DNA of 18,073 nt, taken from a virus (Duplodnaviria > Heunggongvirae > Uroviricota > Caudoviricetes). How positions within the stretch are numbered: position 1 is the first letter of the stretch; each line of letters begins with the position of its first letter. Shown here piece after piece: positions 13,210 to 13,520 of the stretch. The DNA lies in IMG/VR virus record IMGVR_UViG_2526164650_000010, one strand, 5' to 3'. Under the pieces are notes generated by a model. It did not search any database. It was not told the origin of the DNA and saw nothing but the letters and a program-made list of their open reading frames with translations. The translations under genes and the position numbers were made by a program.

Positions 13210-13286
13210 GGCCCTTTAGCTCAGTTGGTCAGAGCGAGCGACTCATAATCGCCAGGTCGCTGGTTCAAGTCCAGCAAGGGCCACCA
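13210..13286 (+). tRNA. tRNA with CAU anticodon, most like tRNA-Ile2 (lysidine type); tRNA-Met not excluded
   Basis: Hand-folded cloverleaf: acceptor GGCCCTT/AAGGGCC, anticodon loop CTCATAA, T-arm GCTGG-TTCAAGT-CCAGC, 3' CCA encoded; the anticodon stem-loop and T-arm match my recollection of E. coli ileX. Confidence 0.75.
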
Positions 13287-13287
13287 A

Positions 13288-13364
13288 CCACCACTAGCTC
13301 ATCCGGATAGAGCATCAACCTTCTAAGTTGACGGTGCGAGGTTCGAGTCCTCGGTGGTGGGCCA
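13288..13364 (+). tRNA. tRNA-Arg (anticodon UCU)
   Basis: Acceptor CCACCAC/GTGGTGG (unusual 5' C), D-arm GCTC...GAGC, anticodon stem TCAAC/GTTGA with loop CTTCTAA, T-loop TTCGAGT, CCA encoded; 1-nt spacer from the previous tRNA. Confidence 0.75.
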
Positions 13365-13366
13365 GC

Positions 13367-13442
13367 GCCGACTTAGCTCAGCAGGCAGAGCAACTGACTT
13401 GTAATCAGTAGGTCACCAGTTCGATTCCGGTAGTCGGCACCA
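13367..13442 (+). tRNA. tRNA-Thr (anticodon UGU)
   Basis: Acceptor GCCGACT/AGTCGGC, anticodon loop CTTGTAA, T-loop TTCGATT, CCA encoded; resembles E. coli thrU from memory. Confidence 0.85.
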
Positions 13443-13445
13443 TAT

Positions 13446-13520
13446 GCGGGCATCGTATAATGGCTATTACCTCAGCCTTCCAAGCTGATGATGCGGGTTC
13501 GATTCCCGCTGCCCGCTCCA
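13446..13520 (+). tRNA. tRNA-Gly (anticodon UCC)
   Basis: GCGGGCATCGTATAATGGCTATTACCTCAGCCTTCCAAGCTGATGATGCGGGTTCGATTCCCGCTGCCCGCTCCA; resembles E. coli glyT from memory. Confidence 0.85.

Follow-up and report, generated by a model that had tools for sequence, protein, structure and literature searches.

The locus at positions 13210–13520 of the IMG/VR record IMGVR_UViG_2526164650_000010, an 18,073-nucleotide (nt) stretch of Caudoviricetes DNA that is referred to in its entirety as the window, raises the question of what four tRNA genes packed head to tail are doing among lambdoid prophage genes, where these genes came from, and why every match to prophage sequence stops directly after the last of them. 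The explanation that we consider likely, and that is drawn from comparison of sequences, is that the cluster is a self-contained tRNA operon of the lambdoid late region that supplies decoders for particular codons, and that its last gene, a copy of the host gene glyT, has served as a secondary attachment site for an integrative island of the type found at the chromosomal tRNA gene glyU. The value of the tRNA cluster lies mainly in its correct annotation: the first gene is of the Ile2 and not of the Met type, the cluster belongs to a phage, and its Thr and Gly members are copies of host genes. More unusual is the fate of the captured glyT copy, which became the target of an element that normally uses a chromosomal tRNA.

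Using ARAGORN on the whole window, four tRNA genes were identified, all on the plus strand within 13210–13520 and none elsewhere. Each was also matched by the Rfam tRNA model RF00005 with 56–70 bits (gathering score 29). From these predictions and from alignments, the genes were assigned as a tRNA of the Ile2 (lysidine) type with anticodon CAU that is a homologue of ileZ (tRNA1; 13210–13286), an arginine tRNA with anticodon UCU on a phage argN-family scaffold (tRNA2; 13288–13364), a threonine tRNA with anticodon UGU copied from host thrU (tRNA3; 13367–13442) and a glycine tRNA with anticodon UCC that is the same as host glyT (tRNA4; 13446–13520). The spacers between successive genes are 1 nt (A), 2 nt (GC) and 3 nt (TAT) long, and a terminal CCA can be read from the sequence of all four genes. 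An initial annotation, made from the letters of the window, had described the same four anticodons, order, spacers and encoded CCA ends, and its gene boundaries agree exactly with those of ARAGORN; the unusual 5′ C that it noted in the second gene, paired to G at the acceptor end, is present as C1-G72. Alignments to host thrU, glyT and ileX and to the ileZ-argN-argO set of Shiga toxin (Stx) phages support its division of the genes into phage and host types.

In alignments, the first gene agrees with ileZ of Stx2a phage F349 at 74/77 positions, and with ileY and ileX of Escherichia coli K-12 at 71/77 and 69/77, respectively. Its anticodon loop (CTCATAA) is that of ileX and ileY, and its acceptor stem (GGCCCTT/AAGGGCC) contains C4-G69 and C5-G68, the acceptor pairs by which the enzyme TilS tells Ile2 from Met; the determinants that separate the two were reportedly worked out by Ikeuchi et al. 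in 2005. ARAGORN labels the gene as Met, a label that follows from a literal reading of CAT only and was rejected, as identical and near-identical copies carry the label tRNA-Ile in RefSeq and the homology is to ileX, ileY and ileZ. Judged on this homology, the CAU gene is an Ile2 gene of the ileX/ileZ type and the Met label is to be corrected. At positions 27 and 43 of this tRNA (13236 and 13252), the phage Ile2 copies possess A27.C43 where host ileX and ileY possess G27.U43: a non-Watson-Crick pair is thus kept there in both phage and host Ile2 genes.

The second gene is 64/77 identical to argN of Stx2a_F349, 58/79 identical to host argU and 46/77 identical to argO of Stx phages. Its acceptor stem is perfect (CCACCAC/GTGGTGG), with C1-G72 and a discriminator G. 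In an alignment of 12 distinct alleles of the argN family, C1-G72 is invariant, the cloverleaf is kept in 96.8% of cells and compensatory changes occur at four pairs; because of these compensatory changes, the family is taken to have been under selection. The anticodon of argN itself is UCG, so tRNA2 consists of an argN-family scaffold bearing UCU, the anticodon that argO bears in Stx phages. The gene carries A20, C35 and G73, which fit the identity rules for arginine. The resemblance to the Ile2-CAU and Arg-UCU tRNAs of Stx phages that the initial annotation had proposed therefore holds for tRNA1 and for the scaffold of tRNA2; it does not extend to the anticodon of argN. In different phages, the second slot of the cluster bears UCU (the window), UCG (argN) or, in the commonest relatives, UUU, the last being annotated as tRNA-Lys and possessing C33, so that one tRNA scaffold is found with three anticodons. 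A divergent subgroup of this slot shows short or odd anticodon loops (TTAAT, TTTAT, TAAAT and CCAGGT) that ARAGORN reports as Leu, ‘Stop’, Phe or undetermined; these may reflect decay or anticodon diversification. The diversity of anticodons in this slot was recorded in IMG/VR contigs L039, L050, L080, L092, L096 and L097 and in the clusters with the Lys variant.

The remaining two genes resemble host genes much more closely. tRNA3 is 74/76 identical to thrU of K-12 (55/79 to thrT), differing from it by two D-loop changes, U16C and U20C (13382 and 13386), and the Thr gene of other phages that carry the cluster with the Lys variant is 76/76 identical to thrU. tRNA4 is identical to glyT of K-12 (75/75), and the anticodon loops of all four tRNAs of the window are those of their host counterparts. 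These identities bear out the suggestion in the initial annotation that the Thr and Gly members are captured host genes. In the host thrU-tyrU-glyT-thrT-tufB operon, the source of both genes, thrU and glyT are parted by tyrU and a 116-nt spacer, and thrT and tufB follow; the window possesses none of these intervening and following elements. Because tRNA3 and tRNA4 are only 3 nt apart and their flanks are unrelated to those of the host operon, they are interpreted as captured genes and not as the operon itself. The TAT spacer between them is compatible with a single deletion in which the T following thrU was fused to the AT preceding glyT, although 3 nt are weak evidence. From sequence comparison, the pair looks as if it was captured from the thrU-tyrU-glyT-thrT operon with the loss of tyrU.

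The cluster is a common, widespread and already annotated module of lambdoid prophages, and it is embedded among lambdoid genes in the window and in every relative. What is added here is the reassignment of the CAU gene to Ile2, the argN-family identity of the C1-G72 tRNA, the host origin of the Thr and Gly genes and the role of glyT as a recurrent target of the glyU island. An identical cluster (100% over 13153–13520) is located between Q and a class II holin gene in a lambdoid prophage of E. coli CFSAN029787, and in E. coli RMDEC332 the cluster lies between a DUF1133 Q-like gene and a holin gene, with the Q orthologue 190 nt upstream of the tRNAs. A position between Q and the lysis genes, as had been claimed for the cluster, is thus seen in both of these prophages; in the window Q is likewise upstream, but the lysis genes have been lost. 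The Lys variant is found in the records of the sequenced Escherichia phages vB_EcoS-689R5, vB_EcoM-606R7 and PhiR47_1, and the Thr-Gly pair is present in Stx phage phi467. The junction of Thr, 3 nt and Gly occurs in at least 120 IMG/VR contigs and also in Citrobacter braakii, in Enterobacter hormaechei and, with three copies in each, in Shigella flexneri SFBU1023 and E. coli ECMA0423. Among 128 cluster instances examined, 54 have the order CAU-Lys-Thr-Gly, 36 have CAU-Arg(UCU)-Thr-Gly and 20 show Thr-Gly only; the second-slot allele of the window is shared exactly by 27 of the 128. The cluster illustrates cleanly, and in a way that can be dated, how host tRNA genes are taken up by a temperate phage. 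The cluster of RMDEC332 (locus L012) is otherwise identical, but its fourth tRNA (4297–4367) bears the label tRNA-Val. This was rejected as a new specificity: it is a degenerate Gly copy with the anticodon loop CTTACAG and a 1-nt deletion near its 3′ end, probably a decayed gene or a sequencing error.

Comparison with the ileZ-argN-argO module of Stx phages (Stx2a_F349 and phage 2851; phage 933W presumably also carries it) shows that both occupy the same genome place, after Q and, in the Stx phages, before the stx and lysis genes. Their first genes are 74/77 identical, their second genes share the C1-G72 scaffold and the same 1-nt spacing, and a homologous promoter is located upstream of both. 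They differ in the anticodon of the second gene (UCU in the window, UCG in argN) and in that the window has no homologue of argO, its third and fourth slots being copies of thrU and glyT. The CAU-Lys(UUU)-Thr-Gly cluster of vB_EcoS-689R5, PhiR47_1, APEC O1 and EPSSH018 has the same four-slot layout, spacing and position as that of the window, with approximately 94% identical DNA; its second slot has UUU, C33 and a discriminator U, and its Thr gene is identical to thrU (76/76), whereas that of the window is not (74/76). Dense tRNA clusters are also known from the virulent phages T4 and T5, as are E. coli operons whose tRNAs are separated by RNase P (valV-valW and leuQPV). The window cluster has in common with these the head-to-tail tRNAs and spacers of a few nt, implying separation by RNase P only, and differs in that CCA is encoded in every gene, that the phage is temperate and that it has a sigma-70-type promoter of its own. 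In descriptions of Stx2 phages, one ‘Met’ and two Arg tRNAs near stx2 have been reported and read as codon compensation (PMC7946995).

The putative promoter of the tRNA operon is sigma-70-like (13172–13200, plus strand), with a −35 element TTGCAG (13172–13177), a 17-nt spacer and a −10 element TATTAT (13195–13200) that ends 9 nt before the mature 5′ end of tRNA1. A promoter scan lists it in an equivalent 18-nt register (TTTGCA...TATTAT, 13171–13200, score 9/12). Across 35 distinct upstream sequences from 100 clusters, those of Stx phages included, TTGCA and TAT(T/C)AT are the most conserved columns (at least 90%), whereas free variation is seen in the spacer and farther upstream. The stretch from the −10 element to tRNA1 is G+C-rich, as in promoters of stable RNAs. 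A second promoter-like sequence (TCGGCA-16-TATAAT, 13434–13461) lies inside the Thr and Gly genes, its TATAAT being the D-loop of glyT, and was treated as a chance occurrence. Upstream of the promoter, a terminator-like G+C hairpin followed by a T run (13093–13121, plus strand) was identified by RNA folding as a candidate tR′: the fold of 13040–13140 has −38 kcal/mol (z = −4.3), with a hairpin CCCGC/GCGGG and then a U run, and the hairpin is conserved in CFSAN029787 and RMDEC332.

From these features we infer that the tRNA cluster is a self-contained operon, predicted to form a transcription unit of its own whose leader would measure just a few nt. Its own conserved promoter would transcribe it, and during lytic growth Q-modified polymerase reading through the upstream terminator would probably transcribe it as well. 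Cuts by RNase P at each 5′ end would then release the four tRNAs, with exonucleases trimming tails of 1–3 nt; RNase P cleavage should be enough for their separation because the spacers are 1–3 nt long and CCA is encoded. These processing steps follow the established maturation pathways of E. coli tRNAs.

Once released, tRNA1 would have its CAU anticodon converted to lysidine by host TilS and read AUA, while tRNA2 (UCU) would read AGA and AGG, tRNA3 (UGU) ACA and ACG, and tRNA4 (UCC) GGA and GGG. In this way the operon would make more decoders available for those A-ending codons that the host seldom uses and that occur more often in phage genes. Relative to a host sample that is small (4721 codons), AGA is 5.5–7.3 times as frequent in the prophage genes of an intact relative, 8.8 times in the prophage open reading frames (ORFs) of the window and 10 times in the integrase gene of the island (p 1e-4 to 2e-7). 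The codons ATA, ACA and GGA are enriched 1.6–2.4-fold in prophage early genes against the same sample. Codon supplementation is therefore well supported for Arg (AGA) and only modestly for the other three codons; overall, the cluster probably supplies decoders for AUA, AGA, ACA and GGA.

Similarity to prophages ends with tRNA-Gly: each match of this kind breaks off at 13520, directly after its CCA, and the sequence that follows (TGACCTTTCTTAAAGTACTCC...) is the one that follows glyU in the island-bearing E. coli 21AR0133. The 3′ ends of glyT and glyU share GGGTTCGATTCCC, then differ in a triplet (GCT in glyT, TTC in glyU), and then share GCCCGCTCCA; in the window, the attachment core TCCC-GCT-GCCCGCTCCA (13504–13520, plus strand) forms the left junction, attL. 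Three further insertions of related islands into this phage tRNA-Gly were found, two of which (EPSSH018 and L133) are complete, with attL as well as attR. In E. coli EPSSH018 (locus L004; tRNA-Gly 14250–14324), a cluster with the Lys variant is followed by a 6.4-kb island and then by normal phage sequence and a holin gene; in IMG/VR contig L133, the island at the phage tRNA-Gly is 8.9 kb long; and in IMG/VR contig L142, the contig ends before the far end of the inserted island. At the far end of the islands of EPSSH018 and L133, CCCGCTGCCCGCTCCA is repeated and is followed by the normal phage flank, which gives a 16-nt core with the original 16 nt at attR; this combination of repeat and phage flank is the signature of a site-specific insertion. 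The attR direct repeat is present in EPSSH018 (20665–20680), L133, 21AR0133 and TUM9868, and the junction is at the same nucleotide in all insertions compared. The suggestion made in the initial annotation that the last tRNA had been an integration target is thus upheld, with the left end of the island following CCA in the window and relatives inserted there with the 16-nt repeat. Comparison shows the phage-borne glyT copy as a recurrent secondary target of the glyU island: by the resemblance of its 3′ end to that of chromosomal glyU, an island with a glyU-specific tyrosine integrase would have been able to use it as a secondary attachment site.

The insertions differ in what has become of the tRNA. 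EPSSH018, L133 and L142 possess a chimeric tRNA-Gly with the 5′ part of glyT and the TTC-containing 3′ end of glyU, leading to the mismatches C50.U64 and A7.C66 and a G49.U65 wobble. In the window lineage, to which IMG/VR contigs L081, L143 and L144 and NCBI assemblies also belong, tRNA-Gly keeps GCT and is intact. The exact junction of the window, from the 3′ end of glyT into the island, is found in these contigs and assemblies and has no match among the GTDB species representatives. One explanation for intact and chimeric forms is that the GCT/TTC triplet lies in the strand-exchange overlap, with either version segregating. This heteroduplex model was left unsupported: the reciprocal attR that it predicts, of the TTC type beside the phage flank, was found zero times in IMG/VR. 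Later gene conversion from another copy of glyT is an equally possible source of the intact tRNA-Gly. A second copy of the core (attR) was not found in the window or within 10 kb downstream in the source genomes; the island there is cut by an insertion sequence (IS), and attR is missing from this lineage because of that truncation. The order of events would be an insertion that left tRNA-Gly intact in the window lineage, followed by truncation of the island by IS elements. At least four independent insertions, which left tRNA-Gly either intact or as a chimera with mismatches, make the site a natural experiment on the crossover region of the integrase.

Other explanations of the locus were weighed against the codon-supplying operon with its secondary attachment site. 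That the cluster is a host chromosomal tRNA operon and not phage-borne has practically no chance: the Gly gene is the same as glyT and the Thr gene nearly the same as thrU, but tyrU, thrT and tufB are absent, so that no exact match to a chromosomal tRNA operon exists, the flanks are unrelated and lambdoid genes surround the cluster here and in every relative, by which this alternative is already refuted. The tRNAs could instead act in counter-defence, standing in for host tRNAs lost to immune systems that cleave or deplete them, examples of which are the anticodon nucleases PrrC and PARIS AriB and colicin-like toxins. The weak enrichment of three of the four codons would suit this role, as would the switching of the second slot between Arg-UCU, Lys-UUU and Arg-UCG on one unusual scaffold, and the Lys version has C33 in place of the near-universal U33, presumably adjoining the cut site of known tRNA-Lys anticodon nucleases. 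In the window, however, evasion of anticodon nucleases by loop mutations is ruled out, all four loops being those of the host; together with Thr and Gly sequences that are identical or nearly so throughout, this means that the tRNAs would be cleaved like host tRNAs and could help by dosage only, and no evidence of a tRNA-targeting defence against these four species was seen here. Counter-defence is therefore considered unlikely for the cluster, while the C33 Lys variant of the sister clusters keeps the idea of tRNA replacement alive for the second slot. Quite unlikely, too, is that the cluster is now a neutral passenger, intact-looking yet functionless, in a dead prophage that has had too little time to decay. 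The prophage is indeed a remnant: its lysis and head genes are gone, its ORF6N gene is split and the window holds three IS copies. Degenerate copies also exist elsewhere, such as the ‘tRNA-Val’ of RMDEC332 with its mutated anticodon loop and 3′ deletion. Against this stand the intactness of all four genes, which are of a common allele (the second-slot sequence is the same in 27 clusters), the intact promoter, the compensatory changes by which the family has been under selection, and a tRNA-Gly that remained intact even though three sister insertions made a mismatched chimera.

For the attachment site, the junction of tRNA-Gly and island could have arisen by homologous recombination or rearrangement with a chromosomal glyU::island instead of by site-specific integration. 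Only the left junction is visible in the window, the genome is IS-rich and rearranged, and the junction keeps the phage-type GCT unlike the three chimeric ones; yet the 13 + 10 nt that the 3′ ends of glyT and glyU have in common are much too little for RecA to recombine efficiently, relatives of the island sit at exactly this position as clean insertions with a 16-nt direct repeat, the phage DNA around them being otherwise colinear, and the same nucleotide is used in every case. An origin by recombination is hence held to be very unlikely. Several observations nevertheless weigh against the codon-supplying operon and its use as a secondary site. The hairpin at 13093–13121 was not listed by a simple terminator scan, and the promoter scan returned no convincing hexamers for a PR′ promoter in 13001–13090. 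The smallness of the host codon sample limits the contrast in codon use, and ATA, ACA and GGA are not clearly enriched in the late genes of the intact relative. The window lineage possesses attL only, of the phage type GCT where the three other insertions have TTC, and the absence from IMG/VR of the reciprocal attR counts on the same side. Finally, the prophage of the window is without lysis and head genes, so that phage growth could have profited from the tRNAs in the past only, and they may now serve the host or nothing.

The island that follows tRNA-Gly is represented in the window by its left part (13521–15988, plus strand), which is cut by an IS at 15989. It resembles the glyU-adjacent island of E. 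coli 21AR0133 with identities of 93.7% over 13446–15233, the part with the integrase gene, and 89% over 15398–15988, and relatives of it adjoin chromosomal glyU (in the order actS-glyU-integrase) in 71 of 5426 complete E. coli genomes. Its integrase (13635–15239, plus strand; 534 amino acids (aa)) is a tyrosine recombinase by its Pfam matches (Phage_integrase, PF00589, E 2e-17; DUF6538), 94.6% identical to the glyU-adjacent protein of 21AR0133 and 73% identical to the integrase of the island nested in the prophage of EPSSH018; the exact protein was found in 105 blocks of the assembly collection. The interrupting element is an IS of the IS3 family (15989–17237, minus strand; Pfam rve and HTH_21), absent from the otherwise colinear contig L143 and 99.8% identical to a copy in S. 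flexneri SFBU1023. Beyond it remains an 82-nt remnant of a Rha/antirepressor-like gene of the island (17238–17319, plus strand), with IS1 from approximately 17320. This remnant is 92.7% identical to positions 15111–15192 of the 21AR0133 island, inside its Rha gene, and Pfam Phage_pRha matches the gene called at this locus in CP007037.1.

Some members of this island family carry a defence gene beside the integrase. In the TUM9868 island, a DUF4145 gene that overlaps the end of the integrase gene (locus L003, 11807–12448) is matched by the PADLOC model PD-T7-4 (E 5e-102). A DUF4145 gene is likewise annotated at the end of the integrase gene in EPSSH018 (L004, 16059–16712), and contig L133 (reverse strand) has a 202-aa ORF in that position. 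PD-T7-4, of which Vassallo et al. 2022 state that it ‘often overlaps an integrase gene’ (PMC9519451), is an anti-T7 system now called RAZR (PMC13017515). The DUF4145 gene of this defence element encodes a zinc-finger RNase. The integrase of the window is 73–82% identical to integrases that are overlapped at the 3′ end by the DUF4145 gene; in contrast to such elements, the islands of the window and of 21AR0133 are without the RAZR gene, and that of the window is truncated and inserted in a phage-borne tRNA gene instead of glyU. No ORF of at least 50 aa was found in 15239–15909 of the window, leaving the island without a DUF4145/RAZR gene there. Other cargo in the relatives consists of a 163-aa coiled-coil protein and a 329-aa orphan protein, neither of a recognisable family. 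The 329-aa protein, which is encoded outside the window, had no sequence match in Pfam, PHROG, PADLOC or PDB; it has 32 close homologue clusters only, and its AlphaFold model has a pLDDT (predicted local distance difference test) of 37. A capsid-like nature is one conceivable reading of this protein.

Downstream of the integrase gene, a 121-nt tandem repeat of 3.1 copies was identified by Tandem Repeats Finder (TRF) at 15252–15620 (plus strand), each copy bearing a promoter of T7 RNA polymerase. Two of these promoters are exact (15328–15350 and 15569–15591) and one has a single mismatch (15449–15471), making three matches in the pattern search where zero were expected by chance; the pattern, TAATACGACTCACTATAGGGAGA, is the 23-bp T7 class III consensus. 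The repeat region occurs in 91 of 5426 complete E. coli genomes, where it carries no annotation; in a phage collection it matches only stretches of ~30–60 nt, mainly in T7-like phages and mostly unannotated. Sister islands have T7-type or related promoter-like sequences in the same place and on the same strand, for example GACTAAACTATCACTATAGGGAGA in EPSSH018 and L133. The repeats are followed by an A+T-rich block (15786–15926, plus strand; GC content 23–28% from the composition profile) in which TRF reports repeats of 11, 23 and 47 nt with TTAACTTAAAG units. The primary replication origin of T7 consists of two promoters and an A+T-rich stretch, and the island similarly has tandem promoters and then an A+T-rich block. 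No description of natural T7 promoters in islands or satellites was found in the searchable literature, and neither PMC9519451 nor PMC13017515, both checked for the term, describes native T7 promoters. If functional, the array would be a natural cellular element wired to the RNA polymerase of a virulent phage. Tentatively, then, the glyT copy might be viewed as a portable secondary attachment site for a glyU island built to respond to T7-like phages, the polymerase of which would switch on, and perhaps replicate, its cargo; the tRNA cluster could in that case be both a translation aid and the vehicle of an anti-T7 element. The cargo would comprise the Rha/antirepressor-like gene, the 163-aa coiled-coil protein and the 329-aa orphan protein, with RAZR beside the integrase in some members.

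The prophage around the cluster is a decayed, IS-ridden remnant that has lost its lysis and head genes. Over positions 3635–18073, the window matches NCBI contig AFHD01000018.1 at 100% identity and the chromosomes CP042980.1 and CP007037.1 at 99.9%, all three probably from Shigella flexneri; in the chromosomes, the locus is a prophage remnant, and beyond it come phage tail genes and then a sit-like ABC transporter. The Q-like late antiterminator gene (10230–10904, plus strand) was identified by Pfam DUF1133 (E 5e-108) and, weakly, Phage_antitermQ (E 6e-06); it is located 2.3 kb upstream of the tRNAs on the same strand. Between it and the tRNAs lie isrK, a C4 RNA, an IS3-family element, the split ORF6N gene and the terminator-like hairpin. 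The IS3-family element (11228–12491, plus strand; Pfam HTH_Tnp_1 and rve) splits the antirepressor-like ORF6N gene: to either side of it the window runs colinear with EPSSH018, inside the ORF6N gene of that genome. The same element occurs twice in the window in inverted orientation, 9.5 kb apart (437–1698 on the minus strand and 11228–12491 on the plus strand), bracketing the early region of the prophage. Rfam further detected a sok antitoxin RNA in 7817–8141, together with a hok ORF (7929–8141). Right after the Q-like gene (10924–11125), Rfam identified isrK (10937–11013), the C4 antisense RNA (11041–11125) and an a1/b1 target (10924–10976); this set, upstream of the split ORF6N gene, is presumably an antirepressor-control module of the P1/Gifsy type.

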